From a virus (Duplodnaviria > Heunggongvirae > Uroviricota > Caudoviricetes), in IMG/VR virus record IMGVR_UViG_3300020050_006655: a stretch of DNA of 48,861 nucleotides; one strand, 5' to 3'. Position numbers and translations under genes: made by a program. Shown one piece after another: positions 12,001 through 41,795 of the stretch (positions are counted from its first letter, which is position 1; the number at the start of each line of letters is the position of its first letter). The notes beneath the pieces were generated by a model. That model was not told the DNA's origin and did no database searches. It saw only the letters and a list, made by a program, of their open reading frames with translations.

Positions 12001-12856
12001 TATATAAATCTTGTATTTGAGACGTAAAATCTTGACAATCGTAATAGTCAAGTTTCTCGTACAGTAAATTTAAATGTGTGATTTTTGACTTACCAAGTTT
12101 AAGGTTTGTGTTCTTTTCAATAATGAACTTGTACAAACTTGTCTGAATGCTATACTTGGTAAGTTCACAAAAAGGAACGTTAAACAATTTAAGTTTATCA
12201 TATTTCCCTTTTGTATCTATCTTCTTGTCTGTTTTGAAATCATGTATTTGATATTCTTCATCTTTCTCATTCCAATACAATCTATCAAACGTTCCTGCTA
12301 AACCAAGATCAAGATCAGCAACCTTAAATTCAATTGCTATTGGAATAAGATGTTGATTAGAGTTTACATATTCCTGACAGAGTTTCTTGACAAGTTCGAT
12401 TGACTGAACATATTCAATTGCTTGAATTGTAGTAAGGCCTTTAGGAAGGATTATTTCAGGAACTTCACCAATACCTCTTTCAAGATGTTCAAGATAATTA
12501 TGCCCGAACGTTCCTCTTGTAGTACCAATCTCTGATTTAAGATTCCATTCAGATTGAAGATTCTTCATGGTAATTCTTATTTCATCTGTCATTACATCTT
12601 CAATGCTATAAGGCATATTGTCAATCACTATTGTTTCGTTGGACATTCCTGTTCTACGAAAGAACGGTTTAACAACATATCCCATTGATTGAAGTGTCTT
12701 ATACAGCAACCAGAATTGACTGTCAAAAGATGGTTTGAGTCTGGATAAGAATTGGGTTACGGAAATCAGATTCTTATTGTGTACATAGTAGGTGTGGCTT
12801 TTATCATAGTAAGAGACACCTCTAAACTGTTTGAATAACTCAATGTTCTTATCCAT
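11966..12856 (-). CDS. PD-(D/E)XK exonuclease-like nuclease
   Basis: HTYY...ISVTQFL, RGTFGHNYLE, IEFKV...LAGTFDRL...IHDFKT and YSIQTSLY motifs. Confidence 0.8.
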   Translation of the reverse strand: MDKNIELFKQFRGVSYYDKSHTYYVHNKNLISVTQFLSRLKPSFDSQFWLLYKTLQSMGYVVKPFFRRTGMSNETIVIDNMPYSIEDVMTDEIRITMKNLQSEWNLKSEIGTTRGTFGHNYLEHLERGIGEVPEIILPKGLTTIQAIEYVQSIELVKKLCQEYVNSNQHLIPIAIEFKVADLDLGLAGTFDRLYWNEKDEEYQIHDFKTDKKIDTKGKYDKLKLFNVPFCELTKYSIQTSLYKFIIEKNTNLKLGKSKITHLNLLYEKLDYYDCQDFTSQIQDLYNGDDWATFVKP

Positions 12857-14407: not shown

Positions 14408-14898
14408 TATTTTGTGGCACGTTTAATAAAGGTTTGAAGCCATTCAGGAAGTTTTAATGCTTCCAGCAAGAAACCAATGTTAGATAAAAGAAGATCGACA
14501 AAAACAGGAGATTTGATAAAGTCTTTCCAAATCTTTTCTATTTGCTGACCATCTTGGGGAATAGGGTCTGTAACAGCAACAAGTGTTTTAACAATTTCAG
14601 GCATTACAGCAAGTAATGCAATTCTGATCTTTTGATCTTGTACTCTTTGAATTGCTGTAACAAATAGTTGTTCAAACGCAATTGTTACGTTTGGGTTGTT
14701 TGTAACATTCAACCAAACCTCTTTGAGTTGAGCCTTGTTGTCAGTTGCTTCATCAGTAAGGACAAAGCTGGTTTCAACAATTTTGTCCAGAATAGTGTTA
14801 ACCAAAACTCTAATTGAGGGGTCTTCGATTTGACTGACAATTGTGGACTTGATAAGTTCGATGTTTGCTCCAACGAATTGGGGGACGAGTTTTTCCAT
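14407..14898 (-). CDS. Hypothetical helical protein with an internal repeat
   Basis: 163 aa; two similar halves (TDEATDNKAQLKEVW / TDPIPQDGQQIEKIW). Confidence 0.55.
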   Translation of the reverse strand: MEKLVPQFVGANIELIKSTIVSQIEDPSIRVLVNTILDKIVETSFVLTDEATDNKAQLKEVWLNVTNNPNVTIAFEQLFVTAIQRVQDQKIRIALLAVMPEIVKTLVAVTDPIPQDGQQIEKIWKDFIKSPVFVDLLLSNIGFLLEALKLPEWLQTFIKRATK

Positions 14899-15335
14899 GA
14901 TAAATTTGTTAATGGTTGAATAATTTCTTTAGGTACATCTTTAACAATCTCTATTTCAAGATCGCTTGTTTTTAATATTTTTTTAATCAGTAAAAATACT
15001 TCTGTATATGCTGGAGTAGGATCAAGTAACTTGTTACCATATCTGCTTTCTCCAACCAATATACAACCAGAAGTATTTTCAACAGTATTACCTTTATGTA
15101 TAAGTATTCCTGTAAAGTTAGGAACATTTAATAAACGAGGCATCAACTGTTTGAATCTTTGGGACATAGTAATTACAATTTTGTAAGTACCATACGGTAT
15201 TGCTGTTTTATGTTTTACTTTTCTGTCCCTAATAGGGTCTTCTAATGTATGACATAAAAACCTATCATTGTACCAGAGTTCACCAAAAGTGTATTCGTCT
15301 GTACAATCAATTCTTTTTAAAGTGAGTTTTTCCAT
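14709..15335 (-). CDS. DUF5675-family protein, putative endolysin (His/Cys, L,D-peptidase-like motif)
   Basis: TLED...KTAIPYGTY...RLLNVPNFTGILIHKGNTVENTSGCILVG; directly follows holin-like genes. Confidence 0.75.
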   Translation of the reverse strand: MEKLTLKRIDCTDEYTFGELWYNDRFLCHTLEDPIRDRKVKHKTAIPYGTYKIVITMSQRFKQLMPRLLNVPNFTGILIHKGNTVENTSGCILVGESRYGNKLLDPTPAYTEVFLLIKKILKTSDLEIEIVKDVPKEIIQPLTNLSWKNSSPNSLEQTSNLSSPQLSVKSKTPQLEFWLTLFWTKLLKPALSLLMKQLTTRLNSKRFG

Positions 15336-15817
15336 TTAAACAACCATCCAAAATATTTACTAATCACATTAACGGGAGATATACCAAAAGCAGATTCCCA
15401 ATTTTCATTTACAGATTTACCTTCTCTTAACAGTATCATACAAGTACCAACAACAGACAATTGAACTTTAGCTAACCATGCTGCTGTTTCTGGCTCAAAT
15501 ATAATATTAAACAGTTCAAGGCAAAATGTCTTAAAGAATAACTGATCTACAATAAACAAGGTTCCTATAAAAGCCCCATATAAAACAATCTTGAAAAAAG
15601 TATCCTGCATCTTATTAGATTTGATACCTGCCTTACCTTCTGTTTTATATACACAATAAATCTTTAAGAACCAATCAAATAATGCTACAACAGTAGTTAC
15701 AACAACTAACGGTTGGATGGGAATAAAAAATGATAAAATTGCTGTGCTAAACACAAGCAAACCATTTTTAAAAAGAACGAGTATTTTAGTTAAGTATGTC
15801 ACGGCCTTACTTTTCAT
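15317..15817 (-). CDS. Holin-like membrane protein
   Basis: Several hydrophobic segments; SNKMQDTFFKIVLY and EGKSVNEN resemble the phage holin family 4 pattern; adjacent to the putative endolysin. Confidence 0.7.
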   Translation of the reverse strand: MKSKAVTYLTKILVLFKNGLLVFSTAILSFFIPIQPLVVVTTVVALFDWFLKIYCVYKTEGKAGIKSNKMQDTFFKIVLYGAFIGTLFIVDQLFFKTFCLELFNIIFEPETAAWLAKVQLSVVGTCMILLREGKSVNENWESAFGISPVNVISKYFGWLFKWKNSL

Positions 15818-15826
15818 TAATGTTTA

Positions 15827-16123
15827 TTATTTGTTTAATATTGAAGCGTCTGATACGATACGATTAGGTTTTATCTTTTCAATTGTTTTGATATAATCTT
15901 TAAGAGTAGTTATTGCCACAGTATTTGCAGCAATAACAGTCTCTAAAGATTTATTTTGTTCTTTAAGTAATTCTACTTTTTCTCTCTCACATGAAAGAAT
16001 TTCTTTTCTTACAGATTCATTTTGTTTATGTAAGAAAAATACTGCAATAAGCATGAGAACAAAACTCATACCTTGTCTTTTTATAGCACTGGTTATAAAA
16101 CCGTCTTGAGTTTTTGTTGTCAT
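15827..16123 (-). CDS. Single-TM coiled-coil protein (holin- or spanin-like)
   Basis: GMSFVLMLIAVFFL hydrophobic segment followed by a coiled coil; first gene of the lysis cassette. Confidence 0.5.
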   Translation of the reverse strand: MTTKTQDGFITSAIKRQGMSFVLMLIAVFFLHKQNESVRKEILSCEREKVELLKEQNKSLETVIAANTVAITTLKDYIKTIEKIKPNRIVSDASILNK

Positions 16124-16139
16124 ATTTTTTTATTGATTT

Positions 16140-17219
16140 TTAAATTCTTGATTCGACGTATTCCATAGAAAACAATTCAAACTGTCTAGTTGCCGTTCCT
16201 ACGGATTTTTGGATATAAACGTTACAGTAGCCAAAACCATCGTGGACATTCGTTGTATTTTCTGCAACGAAGGCACCATTGATAAAAAATGCCACACTGT
16301 TATCCGGTCGGTGAAAAACTTCCAAGACATATTTGGTATTAATGGCAACTGTGACCCCAGAATCTGTGGATGTTTCTGTTGCTGCTGTCCTTGTTACACA
16401 TTGCCATCTACCACCATTGGCTGCATGTTCGTATTTGAAATATGCCCCATCTGGTGATGCTCCTGACAATGAAGCAGGAGAACCCGCTACAATCCTATAA
16501 GTATCTGTCCCGTCTGACAGGGTATTTATGTTTGACAGTACTACTCTAACAAAATTAGCATTAGGTGTGGTAGAGGTCTTACCTAGATATACTGCTGCAC
16601 CCTTTTGTTGGATAGACGGTGCGGCAGTGGCAGAAGTACTTGTACCGACCCTTACACATCTAGGTGCTGTTGCAGTTGGAGCGATAGATGTAAATGTACC
16701 AGAGGCCGCTGTAAATATCCAGTGGTCATAGTCACCCGTAGTAACGGAACCAGTTGACAGAAATGTAGCACCCGCTTCCTTACTTGAAAAGATGTTACCT
16801 TGATTGGACAAAGACACAAATTTCCATCTATCATCAGTATCGTCATAAAAGAAAGTAGCGGTTTGACCCGGATACAAAGGAATATCTCTGGATGTGCTGA
16901 ATCTATTGGCTGCTGTTGAAGCACCATCTTCTTTGGTTAAAAGCACTGGAAAATCTGGCCCTGTATTCATCAACGCTAATTGCTTAGGGCTTGCTGGTGC
17001 TGTAATACCAGATATAATCCTAAACTGATTATCACCAGATAATCTAATTAGAGACGCTGTAGAAAGACCAGCAGGATTCCAATCATTAGCCGCAGCAGTA
17101 AGTTGTGAAGTAGAAATTATATTAAAAGAACTACCACCACCAGACGCTTGTGGATAAACATGTTGGGCAAAAAGAGTGCTTGTAAATAAGCACAAGAATA
17201 TAATTAATATGTTTTTCAT
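16140..17219 (-). CDS. Fibre/receptor-binding-like protein with signal peptide and probable ConA-like lectin C-terminal domain (~359 aa)
   Basis: True start at 17219 by TAATG coupling: MKNILIIFLCLFTSTLFA|QHVY. C-terminal beta-sandwich-like segment VAFFINGAFVAENTTN. Confidence 0.6.
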   Translation of the reverse strand: MKNILIIFLCLFTSTLFAQHVYPQASGGGSSFNIISTSQLTAAANDWNPAGLSTASLIRLSGDNQFRIISGITAPASPKQLALMNTGPDFPVLLTKEDGASTAANRFSTSRDIPLYPGQTATFFYDDTDDRWKFVSLSNQGNIFSSKEAGATFLSTGSVTTGDYDHWIFTAASGTFTSIAPTATAPRCVRVGTSTSATAAPSIQQKGAAVYLGKTSTTPNANFVRVVLSNINTLSDGTDTYRIVAGSPASLSGASPDGAYFKYEHAANGGRWQCVTRTAATETSTDSGVTVAINTKYVLEVFHRPDNSVAFFINGAFVAENTTNVHDGFGYCNVYIQKSVGTATRQFELFSMEYVESRI

Positions 17220-20200
17220 TATTCTACAATCCATGTGTTAGCACCTATTGCGGTGAATTTTTGTGAAAAGGTTGTACCACCAGTTGTTGTTATTGATGTT
17301 TGTGAACCAACATAATTATGAGCAAGAATAACATCAGACGCTCCAGAACGTGAAATTGTTACAGTTACAGCCCTATCAATAGTTATTTCAAATGTGGCAC
17401 CTATTGTTACTTGTGTGGCACTAGGAGCAGAGGCAACTATTTCTGGTAAGTTGATTGCTGTTGTTGTAGCAGAAGTTGGAACATATAAACGAGTAGCCCT
17501 ACCATCAAAGTTAATAGTTGTTGCTGTTTGCTCGCTTATTTTTGCAGTAGGTAAGTTCTGAATTTTATGTAAAATATAATAATCAGTCACTCCGTCGTCA
17601 ATCCAAAACATTACTGCTATTTCTCCAGCAGCAAGAGTTCTATCTGTTGCTGTGTTCACTCCCGACATATCCGACCATTCCCATGTTTGTGAACCTCTTG
17701 ACAGAGTTACATCAAAAGCACCTCTATTTCTAACAGTAATTGTTTTTGCAGCAGAGCCGAGAAGGTTTGATGTATTGTTAAAAGTCAAAGTGATTACACT
17801 TGACGTGCCAATAACATCTACCTCTTGAGTACTTTCAGATACGGTAGTATTTGCTGTTGCTGTAATATAAGGAACGGCTAAGTAACCACCAAGAACGTTT
17901 TTAGTTGTATGGGTAAACACACCAGTTGAACCTTGACCCAATCTTAAATCATTGCCTACAGCGTTAATCCAAAAGTCATTTCCTGCTGTACCTATTGCTT
18001 CAAGAGTTGGTTCACCAGAAATGAACGATAGTTGTAAACTATCGTTACCTACTTTCCAAACTTGAACACCGGGATCAGTACCAGAAGCCACGACTCTAAA
18101 TTTAGGAGATTGTGTACCAGTATTATCAACACCTGTAAAAGTAAGATCGTCTATCTGCGTTGCATTAACTCCATTTGGAACTGTACCAGAAGCACTAAAG
18201 ATACCATTAACCTCTGTCTGTGTATTATTTATAGTAAAAGAAGGATAAGTACCAGTAACGTTTATATCTGTACCAGATGCTATTGTAACAGTTTGGTCAG
18301 GAGCAAGATTGGTAATTGTAGGATTACCAACTACACCATTAGTATTAGATATAGAAATACCTGTACCAGCAGCAATTGATCTTGTGACAGATGTTCCTGT
18401 GCCTGTAACAACATACAATCCTGTAGACGCTGTTGAAGCCAAAGCATTAACATCAGAGTCAAAAGTTACATTAGTTTTAGTTCCATCATCAGCAGCAGTT
18501 GCAGTTGAACCAGCAAAGTTTAATGTTGATCTTGCTGTAAGACCAGTCCCTTCTTCTTGGATTGTTGTATAACCACTTCCGCCAGATACGGTAGTCCAAC
18601 TTGTAACACCTGATCCGTTTGTAGTCATAACTTGACCATTTGTTCCAGCACTTGTAGGCATGGTCATTGTCCAGTTCCCTGTTCCTGTGGAAGATTTAAT
18701 AGCCACGGCATTACCGTTGGATGCCGCAAAACTAATAAAACCATCAGTTGATCCTATATCTCCCACTTCAATACCATCAATAAAAGTTTTCAGTCCGTTA
18801 AAAGGCTGACTAGTTGTATTTACTAGACCTCTTATACCGACACCTGCGTCTGGAATATTAAACGTGTGAGTTGTTCCAACAGAGGAAATATTAAAGTTGG
18901 AACCAGATGTACCAGTTGCAAAAGTTTGAGTTGCCCCTGTCAAAGTATTGAGTGATGAAATTCCACCCCCACCGCCTGAAACAGTCGTCCAGGTACATAC
19001 ACCAGCTCCATCAGTTGTCATAACTTGACCGGGGGTTCCATCATCCGTTGGGAATGTTAAAGTCCAAGTTCCAGCAGCAGCAGCAGGTCTAATAGTTACC
19101 ATACCAGAAGTATTACCTGCAAGACCAATATCACCAAGTTTAGTTCCTGATTCACCTATGGTAAGTAAGTTTGTCGGTGGACTTGAACCTCCTATTTTTA
19201 CATTACCTCTTTGAGTGAGTGAAGGAGAAAGGCCCAAATAAATATGGCCCGGAGAACCTGCTCCTGTTGGAATACCACCGACCAAGAATACATTTCCACC
19301 ATCACCATTTCCAGTAGCACCTGCATTACCACCTTTCATGGAAGCATAACCAGCAGCACCAGCCGTTGTACCAGTACCACCTGTTCCACCAGCAATTTCT
19401 ACAAAACCAGCAGTACCACCGAATGTGGTTCCGTTACCACCATTACCACCAAGTAATGTAATACTACCACCTGCTCCACCAAAACCAGTTCCGGGAGTAC
19501 CCGTAATTGCTCCACCTGCCCCACCTGTAATAGTAGAACTTGAACCATTACCACCAGATACAGTACCTGAACCAGCAGATGTTGCTCCACCAGCAGTACC
19601 AGTTACTGTTAAAAGTGTTGGCGCATTTGTACCAGAACCTGAACCAACCGAAGCAACTGACGCTTGTGTTACATGTACCGTTGCAGAAGGTGAAGTAGTT
19701 CCTATACCCAATCTATTTGTTGCTTCTTTATAAGCAGATGTACCAAAAAGAATATCTCCTTTTGTAGCATTTGTTGTAGATGAAATAGTTAAACTATTTC
19801 CAGATGCTGTACCACCAACAACTGTTTGACCGCCAGATACACCAGTGGTTAAGTTGTTGTTGAGTGTAAGTGTAGTAGATGTACCAGCGATTGTTATACC
19901 TGCGCCATCTATAAAATCTACATCCGTACCTGTACTTGAGTTAAGTGTTACAGGGGAAGAAGTGCCGGAGAAAGTTAAATCAGTTGCTCCACCACCTCCA
20001 CCAGCATCAGTAGCAGGTGCCCAAATAGTTCCGTTCCATTTAATTACTTCTCCTGTTGCAGCACCTTGTTGACCTAAATCAGATGGTGTAATACCTCCTG
20101 TTGCAAGTTGCCCAAGAGTATTTCTCCATACAACATTAGTTTCAGAGGTTTTGGAAGGAAGACCCTCAAATCTAACAGTGCCTACAACATCAAGAGAGTC

Positions 20201-22912
20201 CCTTGCTGCTGTCATTCCATTACCTATTTGAATACCTGTTTCCCCAATCCTCATTTTAGGATTATCGAGTTTAGATGTCATAAAGAATATGGGGTTGGAG
20301 TATCTGGCACCAAGTATCAGAGAACCGTAGTTCTCAAATGCTGTACCAGCAGTACCACCACCAGAGGTTACAATGTACCCACCGTTATCAGTTATTGCCG
20401 AGGTAGGTCTTGCTGCTTCTGAACCACCTAGAATAAGTGGAACATCACCCCCGGAAGAAATCCATGTCCTACCAGACAATGTGAAATTCTCCTTCACCAA
20501 AGGGGCGAAAGAATTTGTTATGTTCGTATAAGTGCCGGTGTTCTTGACCCATATGTTATTCTCAAACGAACCGCGTCTTGCAAAAAGTGCTTCCGTTGTA
20601 GATAAGGTAAGATCAGGATTTGTTCTATCTGTAGTAAAAACAATACTGTTATTAATCCTTGAACCAATTACCAATTTACCAAAACCGTTCCATATACCAG
20701 AACCACCTGCTGTTGTAGCAATAAATGATTCATCAGTTCCAAATATGGAGCCAGAAGTAACATCACCGCCAATCCTAAAACCAACAGAACCGTTGTTTGT
20801 TGAGAATAGAGTACCATTAGTATTATATCTAAGATTCAGATTTGTTAAGCTGTCTATAGACAAAGAATACAAAAGTCTTCCTGATTGAGAAGTATTCTGT
20901 GTAAATCTTCCACCTTGTATAATGGTACTTCCTGAAAGAGTTAAACCGTTGGAAGCACCAGCAGCACCATCGGCTTGAAAATGCCAAGTAGTCCCTGTAT
21001 TGGTTAATGTTATATTACTTACTGTCGACGCTGTAGATACACCGTTAATAGTTGTAGTACTTTCAGGGTCAACTGTAACAGCCCTACCTTCCGTCTCGTT
21101 CATCAAGAATATGGTATTCTTAGGATGTAACAAAAATGTAGGTATGATTACTGAACTTGCCGTAATACCTGTTGAAAGAACTTTATCGTGAAATATAGTT
21201 GCTCCATTACCAGCAGACTGAAAATTAGACCCGTTAATCTTATTTCGATTAAGAAGAAATTTTGTTCCGGGAGCTAAACTCATACTTGAATATGGAGCAG
21301 TAGAATAAACTATATCACAATTATCAAACTCAAATACCTTATTGTCTGATTGTTGACCTCTTACCAAGTAGTCACAATTTATATAACAATCTCTAAAAGT
21401 AGCACCACCGAAACCATCGTAAACCAAATCGTTATTAGACCCTGTATTCAGCAGGATGGAACACCGTTCAAAAAGGTGCCCACCATTTGAGGTAACAAGA
21501 AGTCGATCAAAGCCTGTGATGGTACAGTCATAAACTCTCGATCCGTTAGGAAAACCAACTTGATCCACAACACCATTGCCATTAAAATAACATCCTTTAA
21601 AAATTAGGGATGAGTCTGATGTAGTATTGTCTTGCTGAATCATTTTTGCAAAACTATAGAAAACATCATACCCAACAGAATCCATTTTGATATTCTCAAA
21701 GACTGCTCTTTTGAAAGGAGTTGTTGTATTACCTATTGCTATACCATAGCCACCAGTACGTCTGATAATACCATTTTTTACACTTACGTTTTCTGATTGT
21801 CTTATATTAAGACCCGTACGAGAAAATGGAAGTGATGCTGTGTAAGCAGGAGTAGAACCATGTCTAAAACCATCAATGATAAAATCTTCAAGTGTGAAGT
21901 TATTATTAAGCGTTAAGTGATGGCCAATACCAATTCCCGGCCCATAGTATCCTGTTATATGAATTTCATCGCAAAACTGTGTTGCTATGTCAGGTTCAGC
22001 ATCCAAACCAAATAAACCTATTCGACTTGTGTAAAGGTTTTTTACAGTGATGTTTTTACCAGATATAATAGATACACCATTCCGAAGAATATTATCCATG
22101 ACCACATTCTCAATTATCACATTAGATGAAAATAATGGTTCAGCAAGACCAGAAGCCGTAACCATAATACCATCACCTCGTATGTCTGTAAATCTAAGGT
22201 TTCTTAAAATCACATTATTATAACCTATTGCTGAAATATCACTAATTGGTTTGCCAACCGTAAGACCATGACTAAATTCAGATGTTTGTGTAGCAATTTT
22301 ACCAATAAAGAATAATCCGTCAACAGTAACATTATTGCTCATTATTGTGAGCATTCTTGTACCAGTAGATAGACCTGTCCTTAATTGCCAAATAGCATTT
22401 CTACCATAAATATTTTTAGGTGTGGTAAGAGTGTGTTGACCAGTCAAGTAAGTACCAGCCGGAAAGAACACATCATAAGGACTATCTAAGGCTAGTTGAA
22501 CAGCCAAACTATCTGTAATTCCGTCATCAGGAATAGCACCAAACCATCTTACGTTGACTGTCTTTTTATCAAACAAACGCGTCCACTTTCTACTAAGAGC
22601 ATCGGTAAACACCATTCGTTGATCTGCTGTTTCAGTGTATGTTCTTTCAAAAATACCACCTCTAACAGAGTCAACCATTATAACAACAGAAGGAGCAGTA
22701 GCAGTATTAAACGCTCTGAAAGCAGTTGAGTCTGTTACAGTAGCGAATGACGTAGAACCAAGGTCGTCAGAAGGAGTCCAAGTAGAACCGTTCCATTTAA
22801 TGGTTTGTCCTGTGGTTGCACCAGATGTTTTAAAACCACCTTCTTTAAGTAATTCTTGTGCGTTAATATTAAACGCTAAGAACCCTAAAATTAAAATTAA
22901 TATCTTTCTCAT
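17219..22912 (-). CDS. Giant tailspike/fibre-like protein: signal peptide, pectin-lyase-like beta-helix, Gly-rich and fibre repeat modules (1897 aa)
   Basis: MRKILILILGFLAFNINA|QELL; VNVRWFGAIPDDGITDSLAVQLAL...VFFPAGTY beta-helix cap; GxTTGxxxKWNGxxW repeats; GGAGG-rich tract at ~19240-19620. Confidence 0.75.
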   Translation of the reverse strand: MRKILILILGFLAFNINAQELLKEGGFKTSGATTGQTIKWNGSTWTPSDDLGSTSFATVTDSTAFRAFNTATAPSVVIMVDSVRGGIFERTYTETADQRMVFTDALSRKWTRLFDKKTVNVRWFGAIPDDGITDSLAVQLALDSPYDVFFPAGTYLTGQHTLTTPKNIYGRNAIWQLRTGLSTGTRMLTIMSNNVTVDGLFFIGKIATQTSEFSHGLTVGKPISDISAIGYNNVILRNLRFTDIRGDGIMVTASGLAEPLFSSNVIIENVVMDNILRNGVSIISGKNITVKNLYTSRIGLFGLDAEPDIATQFCDEIHITGYYGPGIGIGHHLTLNNNFTLEDFIIDGFRHGSTPAYTASLPFSRTGLNIRQSENVSVKNGIIRRTGGYGIAIGNTTTPFKRAVFENIKMDSVGYDVFYSFAKMIQQDNTTSDSSLIFKGCYFNGNGVVDQVGFPNGSRVYDCTITGFDRLLVTSNGGHLFERCSILLNTGSNNDLVYDGFGGATFRDCYINCDYLVRGQQSDNKVFEFDNCDIVYSTAPYSSMSLAPGTKFLLNRNKINGSNFQSAGNGATIFHDKVLSTGITASSVIIPTFLLHPKNTIFLMNETEGRAVTVDPESTTTINGVSTASTVSNITLTNTGTTWHFQADGAAGASNGLTLSGSTIIQGGRFTQNTSQSGRLLYSLSIDSLTNLNLRYNTNGTLFSTNNGSVGFRIGGDVTSGSIFGTDESFIATTAGGSGIWNGFGKLVIGSRINNSIVFTTDRTNPDLTLSTTEALFARRGSFENNIWVKNTGTYTNITNSFAPLVKENFTLSGRTWISSGGDVPLILGGSEAARPTSAITDNGGYIVTSGGGTAGTAFENYGSLILGARYSNPIFFMTSKLDNPKMRIGETGIQIGNGMTAARDSLDVVGTVRFEGLPSKTSETNVVWRNTLGQLATGGITPSDLGQQGAATGEVIKWNGTIWAPATDAGGGGGATDLTFSGTSSPVTLNSSTGTDVDFIDGAGITIAGTSTTLTLNNNLTTGVSGGQTVVGGTASGNSLTISSTTNATKGDILFGTSAYKEATNRLGIGTTSPSATVHVTQASVASVGSGSGTNAPTLLTVTGTAGGATSAGSGTVSGGNGSSSTITGGAGGAITGTPGTGFGGAGGSITLLGGNGGNGTTFGGTAGFVEIAGGTGGTGTTAGAAGYASMKGGNAGATGNGDGGNVFLVGGIPTGAGSPGHIYLGLSPSLTQRGNVKIGGSSPPTNLLTIGESGTKLGDIGLAGNTSGMVTIRPAAAAGTWTLTFPTDDGTPGQVMTTDGAGVCTWTTVSGGGGGISSLNTLTGATQTFATGTSGSNFNISSVGTTHTFNIPDAGVGIRGLVNTTSQPFNGLKTFIDGIEVGDIGSTDGFISFAASNGNAVAIKSSTGTGNWTMTMPTSAGTNGQVMTTNGSGVTSWTTVSGGSGYTTIQEEGTGLTARSTLNFAGSTATAADDGTKTNVTFDSDVNALASTASTGLYVVTGTGTSVTRSIAAGTGISISNTNGVVGNPTITNLAPDQTVTIASGTDINVTGTYPSFTINNTQTEVNGIFSASGTVPNGVNATQIDDLTFTGVDNTGTQSPKFRVVASGTDPGVQVWKVGNDSLQLSFISGEPTLEAIGTAGNDFWINAVGNDLRLGQGSTGVFTHTTKNVLGGYLAVPYITATANTTVSESTQEVDVIGTSSVITLTFNNTSNLLGSAAKTITVRNRGAFDVTLSRGSQTWEWSDMSGVNTATDRTLAAGEIAVMFWIDDGVTDYYILHKIQNLPTAKISEQTATTINFDGRATRLYVPTSATTTAINLPEIVASAPSATQVTIGATFEITIDRAVTVTISRSGASDVILAHNYVGSQTSITTTGGTTFSQKFTAIGANTWIVE

Positions 22913-22916
22913 TACA

Positions 22917-25900
22917 TTAGTTTAAATAATTAACTCTGATAATATCGTTAAGAGTATTAGCGAAAGTTGTGAGAGTTGTACCTGAAAATGTATATTGTGT
23001 AGCAGTTGGAGCAGAAGCAACCCAATTTAATTCAACACCATTTCTATAAACCCTAAGAGGATATGCAGTACCAGAAACAACAGGAGCAGAATAAGCCATA
23101 GTAAAGGCTGTTTGACTTGCTGTAGCAGTAAATGTTTCTTCTCTTAAAACTTTGGTAGCATTAACAGTGAATGTTGGATAAGTACCTGTTACATCAATAC
23201 CTGTACCATCATTTAAAACAACTGTTAAATCTGGAGCAGAGTTTGTAATAGTTGGGTTTCCTGATACCCCATTACCGTTCGATACTGTAATACCTGTACT
23301 TGCAGTTATTGTTCTACCAACACCTGTACTCGGGCCACCTACAGCAGTAATCGCATATAATCCTGTTGTAGCATTGGATGCTAAAGCGTCTACATCTGAA
23401 TCTACCGTTACATTAGTTTGACTACCACCATTAGATGCTGTGAGAGCAGTACCTATAAAAGCCAAAGTTGTTTGTTGAGGTTGACTTGTTGTTTCCTCTT
23501 TAATTGTTGAGTACGCTTGTTGGGTTGGTGCGGCAATTGTTACTATACCATCCAATCCTGTACCTGTAGTGGTTAAGGTAATATTAGCACCTTCAACAAA
23601 TTGAGTAGAACCACCTAAGTTAGAAAGAGTTGCTGTATGACTTGTCGCATTTGATGTGTTTGCAATTGTTTGCAACTCGTTAGTTATAGAAGCATCAGTT
23701 GCAATAAGTGGATTACCACCTGTACCATCTCCTGAAAGTCCTGCTCCAATAGCAACAACTTGTGAACCCCAATTGTCTCCACCAGAACTTGATCCAGCAT
23801 TAACGTTAAGTGTATTAGTTGCTGGATTATATGAAACTACAGCACCACCAGAACCAGTAACAGTAAGAGTTTGACCGCCTAATGTTTCAGAGTTAGTTCC
23901 ATCTGTAACTGTTAAAGATTCATTTGTAGCACTTTGGTCAACAGTAGCGATTGTTAAATCATTACCTGATCTTGTAATAGTAGTACCAGCACCTTGGACA
24001 ATCCCAACGTCTGTACCAGTATCAGAGTCTATACCAAAGTTAGGTGCAGTACCAGAAGCTGTTAGATTAGTTCCACCTGAACCAGTAGCGTCTGGTGCAA
24101 AAGACCAATCAGTACCATCAAATTTAATTACGTCTCCTGTAGTAGCACCTGTTTCAGTTATTAAGGCTTGAATAGAGCCTGAACCTGTAGCAATAACATC
24201 TAGCGGAAAATTACCCACTACTTGTACAGTTCCACCACCTGATGGATTACCAGCATTATCACTAAGTCTTATAAAAGGAGCTGATCCAGATGTAGGATTG
24301 ACGGTTATTCCTTGAACAGGATTTACTTGTGAAGACCATGATGAACCATTACTTGTTAAGACATTACCACTTGTACCAACAAGGGGTAAAGCCACATCAA
24401 GATCTCCAGAATTGTTAGTAACAATAATCCCACGCAAACCGTTGATAAGAATATCACCTGCACTACCCGGAACTCCGTCATTACCAGAAAGCTGTAATTG
24501 TGGACTAACTGTACCGATAAGAGCCATAGATTGTTCTTTTTCATTACTTGGTATCCATGTTGAAGTTCCAGAATCCCACCTCAATAACTGATCTGTTGTA
24601 GCACCAGTTGCTGTTACATTTACACCGTCTATTTTATCTACAACAATGTTTCCTGTATTGGATATATCAGCATCACCAGAAGGATTTACAGCAGTTGCTA
24701 CGTTAGAAGCATTACCTATAAGAATATTGTTATTTGCGAGTGTAGAAGAAACACCTGTACCAGTAACCGTAAAGTTAGGATAAGTTCCTGTAACACTTGC
24801 TGTACCAGCACCAGTTATTGCAACAGTTTGATCCGGTGAACCATTTGTTATGGTTATCTCATTAGTACCAGTATTTTCTGAAATAGCAATTCCTGTACCA
24901 GCATTAATTATTAAATCCGTAGAACCCGTTGTATTAGATCGAACAATTGATGTTGATCCTGTACCAGCAAGAACAGACAAAGAACCTTCATTGTTATTTA
25001 AAAGATCACCAGTATTTGTAATTACCGTTCCAGTAACATCTATACCTGTTCCACCTGTATATGTAGTTCCAGCATCATTTGCTGGTGCCCAGTTTGTACC
25101 ATTCCATTTATAAACTTGTCCGGTTGTAGCACCATTTTGTAAAAGATCAGCTTGTATATTTTGTCCAGTAAGAGTTAAGTCTATCCTAGCATTATCTGTA
25201 ACAGTTACAGCAGCATGACTTGCTGCAACAGCAGCATCTAAGCCTGTCTTATCTGTAGCCGTTAGTAAACCTGCTAAAGAAGTTGTTGCAGCAGGAACAG
25301 TAGCATCAATACCACTTGAAGAAACTACATCAAGAGTCGTGGTTGTTCTATTGGCAATTGATAAATCTGTAGAACCAGCACCACCTGTAGCATCAGCAGA
25401 AGGAGTCCATGCTGTACCATCCCATTTAAGTACTTGTCCCGTACTTGCCCCTGTGGCAGTTACAGGGGTATTATCTATTTTATCAACTGTTACAACACCT
25501 GTATTTGTTACTGTGGCATCACCTGAAAGAGTTCTGGATTGAGCAACATTGGTAACATTACCAATATAAACTGTACCATCAGCAAGCGTGTTTGTAAGAG
25601 ATATTGTATTAGTTCCTGTATTTTCTGTAACAGATAAGTTAAGAGAACCACCGATGATAATCTTAGCAGAAGATAAAGTGTTACTATTAATACCTGTTGT
25701 ATTTGCTGCTTCTGCTGTTAAGAATAAACTACCTTCATTTTGTGGATCAGCGTCTCCTTCATTTGCAGAAATTACCAAACTGTTAGTTGCAGGAGTGTAA
25801 GTACTTGAAATCATACCACCACCAAATATTCCAAGAGTTTGTCCACCAAGAGCCTCTGTATTTGTACCATCTGTAATTGTTAAAACCTCATTGGTAGGAG

Positions 25901-26717
25901 ATTGGTCAGTATCAGAATCAAGTTTGGTTTTATCTGTACCAGACATTAAACCTGAAAGACTTGTAGTTGCTTGTGGAACAGTTATATCAGCACCTGTAGA
26001 TGATGTTATATCAAGAGTGGTGTTAGTTCTATTAATGATAGCAAGATCAGTTGCACCACCAGCATCCGTATCGGGAATCCAGTTAGTACCATTATACTTT
26101 AATACTTGTCCTGTAGTTGCTGTTGGAAGTGCTATATTAACATTACCAGCATTATTGGTTACAGTAATACCTCTTACACCAGATAAACCTATATTACCAG
26201 CATTACCCGGAATACCAGCATTATCTGATAGTTGAATATTGGTTCCACTAAGAATCATTTCCTGTTCAATATTCAAAGCATCATTTACTTTTTCAAGATT
26301 ATATTGAAGCAGTGTTTGTTGATTTGGATCTGTAATACCACTAACAAAAGGAACAAGATTATTATTTGTTGTTTCATAAATAACACCTTCTCCTGTAGGA
26401 ACCGATAGTATTGTTGAGATACCTGTGTTGTTTATTCTAACCGTAAAAGAAGGATCTGTTGCAGATACAATAGTTGTGATGGGTAAGTGATAACCTACAC
26501 CAGCATCCGTAAAAAATACAATCTGACCTACAGCAATACTAGAAGCATCAAAGTAACCAGATTGATCTTGAAACGTACCTGTTATTTCCCAATATCCAGC
26601 ACCAGAACCTACTTGAGACATAAACACCCTTCCTGAAAAAAGTGGTATATCTTCTACTTGTGCAAATATCAAACTGGTTGAAAAAACCAATAAGATAAGC
26701 AATAATATTTTTCTCAT
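22917..26717 (-). CDS. Large repetitive fibre-like protein with signal peptide (1266 aa)
   Basis: MRKILLLILLVFSTSLIFA|QVED; Thr/Gly-rich; about six GxxTGQVxKW(N/D)G-type repeats and duplicated internal blocks. Confidence 0.7.
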   Translation of the reverse strand: MRKILLLILLVFSTSLIFAQVEDIPLFSGRVFMSQVGSGAGYWEITGTFQDQSGYFDASSIAVGQIVFFTDAGVGYHLPITTIVSATDPSFTVRINNTGISTILSVPTGEGVIYETTNNNLVPFVSGITDPNQQTLLQYNLEKVNDALNIEQEMILSGTNIQLSDNAGIPGNAGNIGLSGVRGITVTNNAGNVNIALPTATTGQVLKYNGTNWIPDTDAGGATDLAIINRTNTTLDITSSTGADITVPQATTSLSGLMSGTDKTKLDSDTDQSPTNEVLTITDGTNTEALGGQTLGIFGGGMISSTYTPATNSLVISANEGDADPQNEGSLFLTAEAANTTGINSNTLSSAKIIIGGSLNLSVTENTGTNTISLTNTLADGTVYIGNVTNVAQSRTLSGDATVTNTGVVTVDKIDNTPVTATGASTGQVLKWDGTAWTPSADATGGAGSTDLSIANRTTTTLDVVSSSGIDATVPAATTSLAGLLTATDKTGLDAAVAASHAAVTVTDNARIDLTLTGQNIQADLLQNGATTGQVYKWNGTNWAPANDAGTTYTGGTGIDVTGTVITNTGDLLNNNEGSLSVLAGTGSTSIVRSNTTGSTDLIINAGTGIAISENTGTNEITITNGSPDQTVAITGAGTASVTGTYPNFTVTGTGVSSTLANNNILIGNASNVATAVNPSGDADISNTGNIVVDKIDGVNVTATGATTDQLLRWDSGTSTWIPSNEKEQSMALIGTVSPQLQLSGNDGVPGSAGDILINGLRGIIVTNNSGDLDVALPLVGTSGNVLTSNGSSWSSQVNPVQGITVNPTSGSAPFIRLSDNAGNPSGGGTVQVVGNFPLDVIATGSGSIQALITETGATTGDVIKFDGTDWSFAPDATGSGGTNLTASGTAPNFGIDSDTGTDVGIVQGAGTTITRSGNDLTIATVDQSATNESLTVTDGTNSETLGGQTLTVTGSGGAVVSYNPATNTLNVNAGSSSGGDNWGSQVVAIGAGLSGDGTGGNPLIATDASITNELQTIANTSNATSHTATLSNLGGSTQFVEGANITLTTTGTGLDGIVTIAAPTQQAYSTIKEETTSQPQQTTLAFIGTALTASNGGSQTNVTVDSDVDALASNATTGLYAITAVGGPSTGVGRTITASTGITVSNGNGVSGNPTITNSAPDLTVVLNDGTGIDVTGTYPTFTVNATKVLREETFTATASQTAFTMAYSAPVVSGTAYPLRVYRNGVELNWVASAPTATQYTFSGTTLTTFANTLNDIIRVNYLN

Positions 26718-29200
26718 TATATATTTGTGAATTTTAAGTGATAGCCTTGTGAACCTGCTGCTATACCAGCAACCCTCATTGTAATAGAACCTGTTCCAAC
26801 AGCCACAACAGATATTGCAGGATTATTATCCAAATCAATAGATATTGCATTTGTAAGTGCTATTGTACCACTTGTGGGTATTGCTGATTTTTGTACCGTT
26901 GGTATTCTTAAATCAGATACACCAGTGTTACCACCAGTTCCTTGAAACACAACTCTAATCCAGTTAGATGAACCACCAGCATCAGCAGATGCTTGTATAT
27001 CAGCAGCAACCAATCTCCAATCAGCAGATAATATTCTATTACTTCCTGTTGGTGCGGATAATGTCAAAACATTAGACGCAAAACTTGCGGTGATACCAGT
27101 TTGTGTTGCAACAATTCTTAGACTTGAACCAGCATTTCCACCAGTGATAGGGATGTTATATTCAAATATTCCAGAGGGTGCTGAACCATAAGATATGATT
27201 CCGGTGACAGGATCAATATAAACAATGTCTGTTTGACTTAAAGATTTAAGCCCCTTGATAAAGTGATCTGTAACATTTGTTTCAAAAGAATTAACAGGAT
27301 TTACACCATCTGTTGTAACAAGTGATGCTGAACTTGGTGAAGTCATTAATACTCCTGAATAAGCACCAGCATTCTGTTGTACAAATCTTGTTCCTGCTCC
27401 ATCAGGATCAACTCTTATTTCAGCAAAAATACTTGCACTGGCTGCTGTTTCTGAATGTAAAAGCGCGCCATTAGCAAGTGATGTCGTTAAGAATAAATTA
27501 GATTTTGCTCCTGCTCCATCATTCGCTTCAAGAAATATAGAATCTGTGTCTGTTATAAAAACATCATATAAAGCATTACCGTTTATAATAGTATCTTCTG
27601 TAAGAACAGCACCAAGTTTAAAAGGAGTACCAGAGGAACCATTACCTTGAATACCATTAATAGAATTTCTATTAGATTCAATATTTGTTTCTAATGCTTG
27701 AAGTGCCTGTTTAACATTCTGGTTATCTGGAATAATTGTTCCGGTAAAAGTACCAAGATCAGTAGCCAGTGCAGCAACACCAGTTAATGCTACAAGACCC
27801 GCAACATGTGCTTCTATCGTATCAAGATTAACTGCTTGAGTAACTGTTATGTGATCTACTTTAACTTTATCTCCTGCTGGCATAACACCAGCAAGTAGAT
27901 TTGTTGCGGGATTAAGTGTTGCATCTGAACCTGTATCTGAATTAACACCAACTGTTGTTGCAGTTCTTGTACCTTCTGTAAGATTGGTCATTCCACCACC
28001 GCCTCCACCAGATGTAATATCAACTGTAACAATATTACCAAGACGTGTTGCAACAACACCAGCACCAGTAAAGTTAACAGTATCAACATTACCATCATCG
28101 GCACCAAGATCAACACCTTCGTCTTGAAATTGAATCCTTACATTCTTTTCACCATCAAGTTCGTTAAGTGCTGCTTGTACGTTGGTACTTGCTATATTAC
28201 CTGATGGTGTATTTACTATATCAGATGCGTTGAAAGAAAGCATTGCTTTCACCTGACTTGGTGTAAGATCAAGTGGATCCCCTGCCGCACCTGTATTATT
28301 TCCTTTTATTGTATTAGCTGGCATATTAGCCAACTTCTGATTTGTTACAGCATCATTACTAATAGTAGTAACTGTTCCACCTGCTGCTTTTGTAACATCA
28401 CCTGTTAAAGCAGATGTTCTTATGTTTCCCGAACCATCAAATTCAACACCACCATTTACACCAATTTCTTCAACATTACCTAAACCTGCCGTATCCCTAC
28501 CTAAAAGTTTATCGGTATTGATCTGTTGAATTTCATTGAATCCTACAACATTAGGTTTGATTTGCCAAACATCACCCGCAACATTTATATCTGTTTTATC
28601 TCCATCAGATACACCGCCTGTTGAATTTAAAACATCACCTGTCATTGAAAGATTTGAACCAAGTGTAATAGGGACAATGTTACCAGCATTTCTACCAACA
28701 AGTGAATTGGTTGGTACAACCATATCAACAGGATCACCAGAAGTATTCTGGTTTCTTGTTTTTACGGTATTGGCTGGCATATCTACCAATTTGGTATTTG
28801 ATACACTGTTTGCAGATATGATTGTTGCACCATCGCCAGTTGAAGTAACATCGCCTATATGGTTGGGATGTGTGTATTGGGTTAAACCATCCAACTTTAT
28901 TTTATCTGTTGGGGTCATTAACCCTGCTTGGGATGTATTTACGGGAGGAAGAACCACACCAGTACCATTATCATTATCAATAGGTATTGATGTAGATGTT
29001 ATTGTTCCAAGAGAAAGATTTGCTTCATCACTTCCACCACCACCAGATACTATAATAGTACCATCATCAATGGCTTCTTGGATTTCATTGAATAAATCTA
29101 TCCCCTCGTTTGAAATTATTGCAGGTGGATTTCCGCCGAACTGTTCTGTTTTTATCTCCTTAACAATTGATTTAGGGAGTATTATTCGTTTTCCTGCCAT
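26717..29200 (-). CDS. Tail fibre protein without signal peptide (827 aa)
   Basis: Hydrophilic N-terminus MAGKRIILPK; fibre motifs AGLMTPTDKIKLDG, SNTKLVDMPANTVK / TNQKLANMPANTIK, IQFQDEG...VNFTGAGV. Confidence 0.65.
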   Translation of the reverse strand: MAGKRIILPKSIVKEIKTEQFGGNPPAIISNEGIDLFNEIQEAIDDGTIIVSGGGGSDEANLSLGTITSTSIPIDNDNGTGVVLPPVNTSQAGLMTPTDKIKLDGLTQYTHPNHIGDVTSTGDGATIISANSVSNTKLVDMPANTVKTRNQNTSGDPVDMVVPTNSLVGRNAGNIVPITLGSNLSMTGDVLNSTGGVSDGDKTDINVAGDVWQIKPNVVGFNEIQQINTDKLLGRDTAGLGNVEEIGVNGGVEFDGSGNIRTSALTGDVTKAAGGTVTTISNDAVTNQKLANMPANTIKGNNTGAAGDPLDLTPSQVKAMLSFNASDIVNTPSGNIASTNVQAALNELDGEKNVRIQFQDEGVDLGADDGNVDTVNFTGAGVVATRLGNIVTVDITSGGGGGGMTNLTEGTRTATTVGVNSDTGSDATLNPATNLLAGVMPAGDKVKVDHITVTQAVNLDTIEAHVAGLVALTGVAALATDLGTFTGTIIPDNQNVKQALQALETNIESNRNSINGIQGNGSSGTPFKLGAVLTEDTIINGNALYDVFITDTDSIFLEANDGAGAKSNLFLTTSLANGALLHSETAASASIFAEIRVDPDGAGTRFVQQNAGAYSGVLMTSPSSASLVTTDGVNPVNSFETNVTDHFIKGLKSLSQTDIVYIDPVTGIISYGSAPSGIFEYNIPITGGNAGSSLRIVATQTGITASFASNVLTLSAPTGSNRILSADWRLVAADIQASADAGGSSNWIRVVFQGTGGNTGVSDLRIPTVQKSAIPTSGTIALTNAISIDLDNNPAISVVAVGTGSITMRVAGIAAGSQGYHLKFTNI

Positions 29201-29264: not shown

Positions 29265-30725
29265 TTAAGAAAGATAAACACCACCCGCAATAGCATCACC
29301 AGTTACTTTAAAAGAACCAGCCGTTACACGAGAATGTTCAAGCCAAGCAGAAAGAACTGCTTCAAGACCAGCAACAGTGTTTGCCGAAGCAGTACCAGTA
29401 CCAGCATCATTTGATGTTACCATTGTAATAGGAGTATTACCAGCAGCAATACGGGTAATTACGTTATTCACGTTTACCACAAAAGCAGCAAGTTTCTCAC
29501 ATGGAAGCAGAATCACCAAACGTTTTTGTGCGCCTTGTTCTCCGGTAAGAGTTGCCTCTTTATCGAAGTAATCAATCACATAAGACGTATAACGTTTTGC
29601 TTCGTTGATGTAAGTTTTACCTTCGTTGAACCAATCACCCATAGGACGATCTTGACGGGTATGAACCATCAAACCAGCACGGGTTCTCCATTCATTCAAC
29701 CAAAGTCTACCAGTGTTAACTTGTTCTTCACCACGAACCGTAGTGGTAACAGGTTTGGTTGCGGTCAGTCTGAAAGTATCAGAAAGGTTAACCGAAACAG
29801 TGGTAATACGTTGTGGTTGATCGTCAAAAGTACTGACCAATTCACGTTCCAAACCAATAACAATCAGAGCATCAACTTTAGCAGCAGCACCAGCAGTCAG
29901 AACATCAATACGTTCGATAGTTGAAGTTGCAGTAAGATTTGCATCCAAATGTACCAGTTCAGCAAGAGCAGAAACACCTGCTTCGCCAAGAGTCATTACT
30001 TGGTTAATACCATTGCGGGTATCAAAAGCAATGCTTGTGGTAGGAGTTACAGTACCAATTACTTGACCTGTAGAACCAGCAATATTCACACCAAAGACAA
30101 CAAAATCTTTTTTACCTTTATTACTGAAACCATTTCTCAAGCAAAGTCTTGATTGTGAGTTCCATTGAAAAGCAAATTGTTGAAGAACATAGTCTTTAGG
30201 TTGTGTAATACCAGAAGTGGTAAAGTTAATAGCCGAAAGATCTGCAACAAGGACATCATTGTTTGCACCATAAGTTTTTTCAGTATTAACACCATCAAGC
30301 GTCAAATATGCTTTATAAGCAATATCATTTGCAGGAGTACCGAAGTTAGAAATTACTTGTGCTGACAACTTACCAAAAGTTGCTTTTTTAACACTCACAG
30401 AATGGATTTGGCCACGTCTGATTATGTTGCTTTCTTGTTTAGCCAAATCACCATCTTCCCAAAGAGAAACGGTGTTAGTAGCATTAGATTTAGGAGTACC
30501 AGCAACAACTTTAATTGCTTGTACTTCTGCTGAATCATCACCAGTAACATTATAGTTACCGAGTACCCGAACAGTAGAGTTGGGATCAAAACTCAAAACA
30601 CCAAGTTGACCATCAGTCAAGTTCAATGCTGTAGTTGCTGTCACCATTGCTCCTGTAGGGAGAGCTAAATCTCCACGACCAACCAGAATATCATAGGCTG
30701 CCGGAAGTCTGTTACTTTTTATCAT
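29265..30725 (-). CDS. Abundant conserved crAss-type virion protein (possible auxiliary capsid protein)
   Basis: 486 aa; codon usage like the MCP (many CGT/GGT codons); third gene after the MCP; followed by a terminator. Confidence 0.55.
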   Translation of the reverse strand: MIKSNRLPAAYDILVGRGDLALPTGAMVTATTALNLTDGQLGVLSFDPNSTVRVLGNYNVTGDDSAEVQAIKVVAGTPKSNATNTVSLWEDGDLAKQESNIIRRGQIHSVSVKKATFGKLSAQVISNFGTPANDIAYKAYLTLDGVNTEKTYGANNDVLVADLSAINFTTSGITQPKDYVLQQFAFQWNSQSRLCLRNGFSNKGKKDFVVFGVNIAGSTGQVIGTVTPTTSIAFDTRNGINQVMTLGEAGVSALAELVHLDANLTATSTIERIDVLTAGAAAKVDALIVIGLERELVSTFDDQPQRITTVSVNLSDTFRLTATKPVTTTVRGEEQVNTGRLWLNEWRTRAGLMVHTRQDRPMGDWFNEGKTYINEAKRYTSYVIDYFDKEATLTGEQGAQKRLVILLPCEKLAAFVVNVNNVITRIAAGNTPITMVTSNDAGTGTASANTVAGLEAVLSAWLEHSRVTAGSFKVTGDAIAGGVYLS

Positions 30726-31441: not shown

Positions 31442-31446
31442 ATTGT

Positions 31447-32526: not shown

Positions 32527-32540
32527 GTTTTAAAGTTGGA

Positions 32541-32581
32541 AAAAATAAAAAGAAAAGGGGATACACAACCCCCTTTTCTTT
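32541..32581 (-). terminator. Intrinsic terminator after the major capsid gene
   Basis: Minus strand AAGAAAAGGGG...CCCCTTTTCTT followed by TTTATTTTT. Confidence 0.8.
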
Positions 32582-32592
32582 AAATCAAATTA

Positions 32593-41583: not shown

Positions 41584-41795
41584 GTTTAACTTTGTTAAAC
41601 TTTAAATTAAAATTATCGTAGTCTCTGAACCTTTTCCATTTTAAAGGAACTTGGCTGCTGATTACTTGTAAGATACTTATTTTCAAACCGTCACGTTTAT
41701 CGTTTCCAATTCCGTTGTGGTTAAGTACCAAAAGCCTTCCAGCAATTTACACATAAAATTGGTAACTATTACTAATTACCGGGGCAGTGGTCTTT
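40870..41795 (-). mobile_element. Group I self-splicing intron (926 nt) in terL
   Basis: 5' exon ends GGGGU and pairs with the intron guide GCCCC (U.G at the splice site); P2 GGUAAUUA-GUAA-UAGUUACC; conserved P AAUUGCUGGAA, Q AAUCAGCAG, R GUUCAGAGACUA, S AAGAUAUAGUCC; P3 AUGUGU/ACACAU; ends in G at 40870. Confidence 0.92.

Follow-up and report, generated by a model that had tools for sequence, protein, structure and literature searches.

Three leader-bearing fibre genes in one late block

The window analyzed here is the whole 48,861-nucleotide stretch of IMG/VR record IMGVR_UViG_3300020050_006655. All genes of interest lie on its minus strand in one densely packed late block, in which a fibre gene lacking a leader (P0004) is followed by three genes (P0001, P0002 and P0003) whose products begin with N-terminal leaders resembling signal peptides of the general secretory (Sec) pathway. 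An earlier inspection of the letters by a model (the sequence-only reading) had drawn attention to these leaders and proposed that the three proteins are exported. The four genes and the elements recognized within them, in order of transcription, are listed below.

26717-29200, minus strand: P0004, leaderless fibre, 827 amino acids (aa)
22917-26717, minus strand: P0001, leader-bearing fibre, 1266 aa, with repeated WNG motifs and no cysteine
26661-26717, minus strand: P0001 leader, 19 codons; predicted cleavage after ..IFA and before Q
26277-26660, minus strand: P0001 mature N-terminal domain (N-domain), residues 20-147, 128 aa
23121-23576, minus strand: P0001 module common to P0002, residues 1048-1199 (BLASTP, 51% identity over 152 aa, E 2e-32)
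17219-22912, minus strand: P0002, leader-bearing tailspike/depolymerase-like protein, 1897 aa
22859-22912, minus strand: P0002 leader, 18 codons; predicted cleavage after ..INA and before Q
21053-22747, minus strand: P0002 right-handed beta-helix, residues ~56-620 (AlphaFold2 model, predicted local distance difference test (pLDDT) 82)
18188-18628, minus strand: P0002 module common to P0001, residues 1429-1575 (BLASTP)
16140-17219, minus strand: P0003, leader-bearing lectin-like protein, 359 aa from the MKNIL start
17166-17219, minus strand: P0003 leader, 18 codons; predicted cleavage after ..LFA and before Q

The junctions are as the sequence-only reading had described them, with TAATG overlaps at 26717 and 17219 and a 4-nt gap at 22913-22916. 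An alternative ATG at 17234 would extend P0003 to 364 aa (16140-17234); the MKNIL start is also the one used in a 5.8-billion-protein collection (P0005).

The N-termini quoted by the sequence-only reading are recovered from the translations. Each of the three leaders combines an n-region containing Lys/Arg, a very hydrophobic core of 8-15 uncharged residues, small residues at positions -3 and -1, and Gln at +1. All three were called as Sec/signal peptidase I leaders by an in-house heuristic and by eye. Gln at +1 of signal peptidase I substrates is the Q-rule of Bacteroidota (PMC5837995), and formation of pyroglutamate from this residue is reported to protect exported proteins (PMC10653852); on this point the sequence-only reading stood on established ground. 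It was also right that the 827-aa fibre has no signal peptide, as P0004 begins with an ordinary N-terminus devoid of any hydrophobic stretch. Reading of the P0001-P0003 sequences revealed neither a lipoprotein Cys at +1 nor a twin-arginine (Tat) motif. Likewise, no C-terminal sorting domain (type A/B) of the type IX secretion system (T9SS) was found with Pfam, nor with NCBIfam at E<=1, isolated C-termini included, which agrees with what had been claimed from the letters.

Among the real genes of the window, the heuristic flags only P0001-P0003 and a single 158-aa open reading frame (ORF). We estimated the chance background from 80 viral loci: of their 1666 six-frame ORFs with a length of 100 aa or more, 45 appeared leader-like (2.7%), and 5 of these 45 (about 1 in 9) had Gln at +1. 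Given these two frequencies, the occurrence by chance of three consecutive genes with a leader followed by Gln is negligible.

Conservation of the leaders among relatives

The sequence-only reading had suggested checking whether homologues keep the leader, and they do. Relatives of P0002 carry a leader in 11 out of 11 cases, from 100% down to 44% identity; their hydrophobic region varies freely while all leaders end in Ala followed by Gln. The close relatives of P0003 all have a leader and Gln (9/9). In this family, one pair with 65% overall identity has leaders unrelated to each other, whereas the mature proteins of both start with QHVYP. Distant relatives of P0003 lack leaders and have ordinary fibre-like N-termini. 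Leaders are likewise present in nearly all P0001 relatives. An exhaustive search with mature P0001 returned 2047 relatives at E<=1e-3. Among the best 150 of these 2047, 109 are leader-like, with Gln at +1 in 100 of the 109, and several more have leaders hidden behind wrong gene starts. In 31 of 32 representative relatives, residue +1 behind a leader of ~18 aa is also the first residue of the P0001-type N-domain. In a curated set of relatives, Gln occupies +1 throughout (22/22). Between homologues, identity of the leader does not exceed identity of the mature N-terminus.

Two relatives of P0001 (P0081 and P0082) start at Met33 in the database, which drops the leader. In the contig L091 (5905-6001), the frame upstream of Met33 is open and encodes an intact leader, indicating that the Met33 start is a choice of the gene caller; Met33 is not conserved in the P0001 N-domain family. 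Leader frequencies computed from called proteins are therefore underestimates. Some other database entries begin inside or upstream of the leader.

The related phage contigs L001 (138 kb) and L004 (105 kb, with CrAss_Ring families, including both CrAss_Ring_1 and Ring_2) contain syntenic giant genes with the same type of leader. In L004, the P0003 homologue is followed by an additional leaderless protein of 313 aa (11062-12003) that has a Cys-rich N-terminus like that of FpV4 gp19 and a WNG-type motif.

In all three families, the feature is kept, its sequence is free, and the cleavage-site residues and Gln are fixed, which argues for Q-rule signal peptides rather than for a structural or docking helix. 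From this pattern of sequence conservation, we consider it very probable that the leaders are real and functional Sec/signal peptidase I export signals of the Bacteroidota type.

Folds, genome context and leader-bearing fibres elsewhere

The description of the products as fibre, tailspike and lectin-type proteins was borne out by structure prediction and shared modules. The AlphaFold2 model of the first 620 residues of P0002 consists of a detached helix (residues 2-23), a segment of low confidence to residue 46, and then a long beta-helix; the low-confidence linker contains a 'GATTGQ..WNG..W.P' motif. Its best Foldseek matches are the tailspikes and capsule depolymerases CBA120 TSP2, Fri1 gp49, K64-1 S2-4 and HK620 (E down to 3e-10), with secreted bacterial lyases ranking below them, and a Pfam Beta_helix match falls slightly under its cut-off. 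The P0003 model (pLDDT 84.5) adopts a concanavalin-type lectin fold that matches legume lectins and SO2946 (2a5z) in Foldseek, consistent with a Pfam match to SO2946-like_C (E 2e-8). Module sharing by the 827-aa fibre was only partly as claimed. P0004 matches P0001 with 35-47% identity over 45-66 aa (BLASTP), contains two 'AG(L/V)M..DK.K(L/V)D' fibre motifs and shares an 'AGLM..DK.KLD' module with P0001, while BLASTP found nothing in common between P0004 and either P0002 or P0003.

Bodies carried behind the P0001-type N-domain range from 131 to 1748 aa. Such a constant head followed by variable bodies is the usual build of virion-anchored receptor-binding proteins. The mature N-termini of P0002 and P0003 differ from this domain. 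In the fibre cluster of a 114-kb crAss-like contig (L157, 9001-13774), the P0001-type N-domain occurs twice in adjacent fibre genes, once in a leaderless protein of 293 aa and once in a protein of 1296 aa with leader and Gln. We found no PHROGs match for P0001-P0003, no match of P0001-P0004 to Protein Data Bank (PDB) sequences using phmmer, and no related IMG/VR locus when P0003 alone was the query. For the P0001 N-domain, a protein-atlas search returned nothing beyond weak clusters of viral proteins (scores <0.9).

Other candidate marks of export were considered and discarded. The '..W(Y)IV..' ending of P0002 resembles by eye the ends of Chitinophaga fibres, but its interpretation as a new sorting signal was not supported by BLASTP. 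The motif D[ST][AILVMT], reportedly an O-glycosylation sequon, is absent from P0001 (0 sites versus 8.8 expected), and two leaderless relatives initially looked undepleted. Over larger sets, the motif is depleted in leader-bearing P0001 relatives (544 observed versus 909.5 expected, 0.60) as well as in leaderless ones (86 versus 227.6, 0.38), and is not depleted in leader-bearing beta-helix proteins (58 versus 62.6). Depletion with or without a leader is a trait of the fibre repeat family and no evidence of export. The P0001 relative P0091 has 110 Asp residues, not one of them directly before Ser or Thr.

The following features surround the fibre genes.

14709-16123, minus strand: lysis cassette, comprising a 98-aa transmembrane protein, a 166-aa holin-like protein and a DUF5675 protein related to crAss001 gp30
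29265-34197, minus strand: upstream structural genes encoding the capsid, 359-aa, 239-aa (CrAss_Ring_3_4) and 486-aa proteins (PHROG/Pfam)
32593-34197, minus strand: major capsid protein, 534 aa (phrog_11589)
39094-40827, minus strand: terminase large subunit, main piece
40870-41583, minus strand: LAGLIDADG homing-endonuclease ORF that splits the terminase
41772-42380, minus strand: terminase large subunit, N-terminal piece

PHROG and Pfam matches in the window include the terminase large subunit, a GroEL-like chaperonin, the portal (834 aa, phrog_6547), the major capsid protein, CrAss_Ring_3_4 and CrAss_Ring_1. The genome that carries the fibre set has crass portal, capsid and ring genes as well as a muzzle-sized gene (1371 aa), which places the set where the fibre cluster lies in Crassvirales. 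In tblastn, the matches of the portal are confined to crAss-like Bacteroidota phages (Flavobacterium FpV, Cellulophaga and Bacteroides crAss) at ~21% identity. These crass-type genes and this distant portal assign the window by sequence to an uncultured, distantly related crAss-like phage; no close relative among cultured phages emerged from megablast and tblastn with the region, P0001 and P0002. The lysis cassette follows P0003 directly, as had been noted, and the N-terminus of its DUF5675 protein is of the same type as that of crAss001 gp30. Location of the LAGLIDADG ORF between the two terminase pieces is consistent with the intron proposed by the earlier reader. The 158-aa ORF also flagged by the heuristic (43293-43769, minus strand) lies in the small-gene stretch upstream of the terminase; its leader-like N-terminus MKYIILFLLFPFLLSS is followed by QT, and it has no NCBIfam family match.

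Leader-bearing fibre genes also occur in cultured phages. In the Cellulophaga siphovirus phi10:1, gp091 to gp094 each possess a leader and Gln and are each annotated as structural "based on experimental MS/MS proteomics" (tandem mass spectrometry, MS/MS), and a leader is also present on the pectate lyase gp095. In phi13:2 (Pachyviridae), gp084, gp086 and gp087 have leaders and Gln and are located directly before the lysis cassette, as in the window. Relatives of phi10:1 gp093 were found in 33 Cellulophaga phage records. The pectate-lyase beta-helix body of gp093 (L156, 16101-18434) is 44% identical over ~650 aa to that of phi14:2 g086 (L007, 25801-29628), a leaderless virion tailspike with a classical fibre N-terminus from a phage of the same host genus. 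This identity indicates that one enzyme body follows a leader in one phage and a classical fibre N-terminus in another. Among 68 complete beta-helix ORFs of IMG/VR contigs, 6 have leaders, all with Gln at the predicted site (6/6), and these six occur in sipho-like, podo-like and other contexts. Two further contexts come from more distant relatives of P0002: in L008, a small element of temperate appearance, the gene immediately precedes a spanin-like gene and an endolysin, and in L010, a different phage, it lies beside terminase and portal genes.

Beyond phages, chromosomally encoded proteins of the Fibrobacterota-Chlorobiota-Bacteroidota (FCB) group, among them Saprospiraceae, Chitinophagaceae and Runella, also contain the WNG motif and sequences matching long parts of P0001 and P0002. 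Nearly all of these fibres have a leader and Gln. They contain DUF5907 repeats, end in Peptidase_S74, beta-helix or YadA-head domains, and at times form arrays of 4-5 paralogues. One Saprospiraceae S74 fibre is 28% identical to P0001 over ~950 aa. Five consecutive leader-bearing fibre paralogues with phage-fibre modules (DUF5907 repeats) lie in Chitinophaga sp. YR573 (L126, 647-12452) with no obvious phage genes alongside, and four paralogues of the same build in Runella defluvii (L101, 1987-9794). In Runella limosa (L119, 400-17400), a leader-bearing beta-helix protein of 1077 aa lies inside an element that also contains a DUF5675 lysin-like gene, a gene for a 483-aa protein shared with L101 and many genes for small proteins that have a basic tail and a transmembrane segment at the C-terminus; this element may be an unusual, perhaps membrane-containing, prophage.

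Probable export and proposed destination of the fibres

We propose, with a probability of about 0.5, that P0001-P0003 are receptor-binding fibres of a crAss-like phage that are exported by Sec, processed by signal peptidase I and most likely end on virions. In the best reading of their folds, they would constitute an accessory receptor-binding set, with P0001 as a fibre, P0002 as a beta-helix tailspike of the depolymerase type and P0003 as a lectin-like tip protein. In crAss001, gp22 docks in the tail hub by its residues 1-26 and carries the other fibres (PMC10172136). By likeness to this protein, P0004 is likely the primary fibre docking on the tail, and the positions of P0001, P0002 and P0003 would make them accessory fibres. 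We favour a place on the virion because of the position of the genes, the modules shared with P0004, the head/body architecture, the leaderless copy of the N-domain and the annotations in cultured phages. The sequence-only reading had proposed export followed by addition to virions, display on the infected cell or free release. The leaders do behave as real signals; as between virion and accessory roles, the evidence leans to the virion.

The very hydrophobic leaders would direct the nascent chains through SecYEG, and signal peptidase I would cleave after the small residue at -1. The exposed Gln would then be cyclised to pyroglutamate by the glutaminyl cyclase of the host, thereby shielding the new N-terminus, and the fibres would fold and oligomerise in the periplasm. 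Meanwhile, the leaderless P0004 would be built onto the particle in the cytoplasm. The exported fibres would most likely join P0004 only once the adjacent holin/lysin cassette breaches the envelope, their conserved mature N-terminal modules being the presumed attachment ends. We put forward this two-compartment assembly tentatively for tailed phages of Bacteroidota, as somewhat less probable than an association with virions as such: capsid, tail and primary fibre would be made in the cytoplasm, and distal receptor-binding fibres and depolymerases, exported by Sec, trimmed by signal peptidase I, capped by pyroglutamate and folded in the periplasm, would be added only on opening of the inner membrane by the holin. 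In T4, particles that lack fibres can be completed in extracts, which makes late attachment of fibres physically plausible. Bacterial fibres resembling the mosaic adhesive trimers (MAT) of Bdellovibrio show that Sec can export trimeric fibres of this phage type, which then fold outside the cytoplasm. Finally, the tails of crAss001 contain disulfide bonds (PMC10172136), which would imply some maturation outside the reducing cytoplasm.

Several observations weigh against a destination on the particle. To our knowledge, extracytoplasmic assembly steps have not been described in tailed phages, and we know of neither exported proteins added to a tailed-phage particle nor a route from periplasm to particle. 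The fibres of three cultured crAss-like phages are leaderless, from which it follows that leaders are unnecessary for crass fibre assembly. The leader-bearing proteins of phi10:1 and phi13:2 show no homology to P0001-P0004 by BLASTP and are thus analogues. The MS/MS annotation of the phi10:1 proteins comes from CsCl-purified phage and may reflect co-purifying material, and the record is silent on whether any of the peptides derive from the leader. Bacteria themselves commonly secrete beta-helix enzymes by means of signal peptides (RbmB and exopolygalacturonases in the Foldseek search with P0002), and in some phages (L016 and L012) the leader-bearing beta-helix gene lies outside any recognisable tail module. 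The leader calls themselves come from a crude in-house heuristic combined with conservation.

A less probable reading is that the three proteins are exported without ever joining the particle and act in the periplasm or after release, as a set of depolymerase, lectin and fibre that destroys or masks the capsule or lipopolysaccharide receptors of the infected cell, as a superinfection block sparing progeny from debris, or as free matrix-degrading enzymes at lysis. The functional appearance and conservation of the leaders, the match of the P0002 beta-helix to polysaccharide depolymerases including secreted bacterial ones, the lectin fold of P0003 and the location of the genes directly before the lysis cassette would all suit such roles, as would the beta-helix genes found outside clear tail modules, and the leaderless P0004 might by itself be sufficient for the virion. 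In phages of Porphyromonas gingivalis, Q-rule proteins have been interpreted as envelope modifiers (PMC10367356). Envelope or free roles are harder to reconcile with a constant N-terminal head followed by highly variable bodies, as in virion-anchored fibres, with the modules that P0001 has in common with the P0004 fibre, and with the structural annotation from MS/MS of the leader-bearing counterparts in phi10:1. The latter phage has no large leaderless late gene after gp088/gp090, so that no other fibre candidate is visible. Moreover, proteins delivered to the periplasm would stop short of the outer face of the outer membrane, and we found no T9SS or lipoprotein signal. It is less probable again that the genes are phage-borne copies of the MAT-like secreted fibres of the host phylum, carried as accessory cargo (moron) and acting as adhesins on the infected cell in aggregation or in reaching new hosts. 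This would account for the WNG motif and the long stretches of P0001 and P0002 in chromosomal fibres with leader and Gln, often with S74 or beta-helix ends and in arrays of paralogues, for the extended similarity of P0001 to the Saprospiraceae S74 fibre, and for the comparable layout of Bdellovibrio MAT proteins, in which a signal peptide precedes a domain of ~130 aa at the cell surface (PMC10769870). The genes, however, form part of the late structural operon of a lytic-type crAss-like phage, where they are tightly spaced between fibre and lysis genes, and the set is kept at the same place in related phage contigs; Pfam and NCBIfam revealed no S74 domain or surface-sorting signal, and display just before lysis leaves little time to act.

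Least probable of all is that the hydrophobic N-termini are not export signals and that assembly is cytoplasmic, the N-termini being uncleaved oligomerisation or docking helices, membrane tethers for assembly, or products of wrong starts. Gene callers do sometimes begin P0001 relatives at Met33, large and fast-folding trimeric fibres are awkward Sec substrates, and cleavage is not evident from the MS/MS data. On the contrary, the upstream frame is open with an intact leader wherever it was checked, and Met33 is unconserved. A docking peptide should be conserved no less than the mature N-terminus, whereas the leaders differ completely between proteins that are 65% identical while small residues at -3/-1 and Gln persist. 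The occurrence of Gln at +1 in 100/109 leader-like relatives likewise fits the Q-rule and not a structural helix.

Tail fibres and tailspikes decide host range, and in the textbook view all parts of a tailed phage are assembled in the cytoplasm. Conserved host-type export signals on fibre proteins challenge this cytoplasm-only view. Either the particles of tailed phages can be completed with parts from the periplasm, or a large group of genes labelled "fibre" encodes exported envelope-modifying factors. Both outcomes would change the annotation of fibre genes of Bacteroidota phages, including relatives of the abundant gut crassviruses, and the choice of start by gene callers, as some database entries drop the leader. 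They would also change the expression of receptor-binding and depolymerase proteins, for which the mature start would be Gln, possibly as pyroglutamate. The question is directly testable, since phi10:1, phi13:2 and their hosts are in culture. The sequence-only reading had called the arrangement a candidate for an undescribed system. This holds within the open-access literature that we searched, in which we found neither a description of tailed-phage fibres with signal peptides nor a discussion of the leaders of phi10:1 and phi13:2. The arrangement is not unique to the window, as it recurs in unrelated Bacteroidota phages and in MAT-like chromosomal fibres.

Known systems each share part of this organization. 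In inoviruses, the receptor-binding and coat proteins pIII and pVIII carry Sec signal peptides and are assembled into the virion from the envelope side. These are filamentous phages extruded through the envelope, whereas tailed phages are thought to be built wholly in the cytoplasm. The phages of P. gingivalis encode Q-rule proteins of undefined function whose Sec/signal peptidase I leaders expose Gln and were read as an adaptation to Bacteroidota export (PMC10367356; Matrishin et al. 2023). Unlike the window genes, they are five genes in temperate phages and not giant fibre or tailspike proteins of a virion fibre cluster. Bdellovibrio MAT fibres are exposed on the cell surface and have a conserved domain of ~130 aa behind the signal peptide, along with phage-type fibre modules (PMC10769870); the layout of P0001 is similar, its leader being followed directly by the 128-aa N-domain and then by fibre modules with variable ends. 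MAT fibres are chromosomal cell-surface proteins of a bacterium, often with an S74 end, while the window genes are late phage genes without S74. The leader-bearing proteins of phi10:1 and phi13:2 are similar to those of the window in that consecutive fibre or pectate-lyase proteins with leader and Gln close the structural module before the lysis genes, but these phages belong to other families (Assiduviridae and Pachyviridae).

The closest correspondence in gene order is with cultured crAss-like phages. In phi14:2, the capsid gene is followed, as in the window, by three structural genes, the fibre cluster g080-g086, lysis genes, and ring and muzzle genes, and according to its record the proteins g080-g086 were found in virions by MS/MS. 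In crAss001, the fibre cluster gp22-gp26 also precedes the lysis genes, and the clusters of both phages contain beta-helix "pectate lyase" tailspikes and lectin-like proteins comparable to P0002 and P0003. Similarity at the sequence level is almost nil, the only match being that of P0004 to the virion protein g081 of phi14:2 (56% over 39 aa). The fibres of crAss001, phi14:2 and FpV4 are devoid of leaders, in contrast to the window, where three out of four fibre genes have one, and it is these leaders that are new with respect to known crass fibre clusters.

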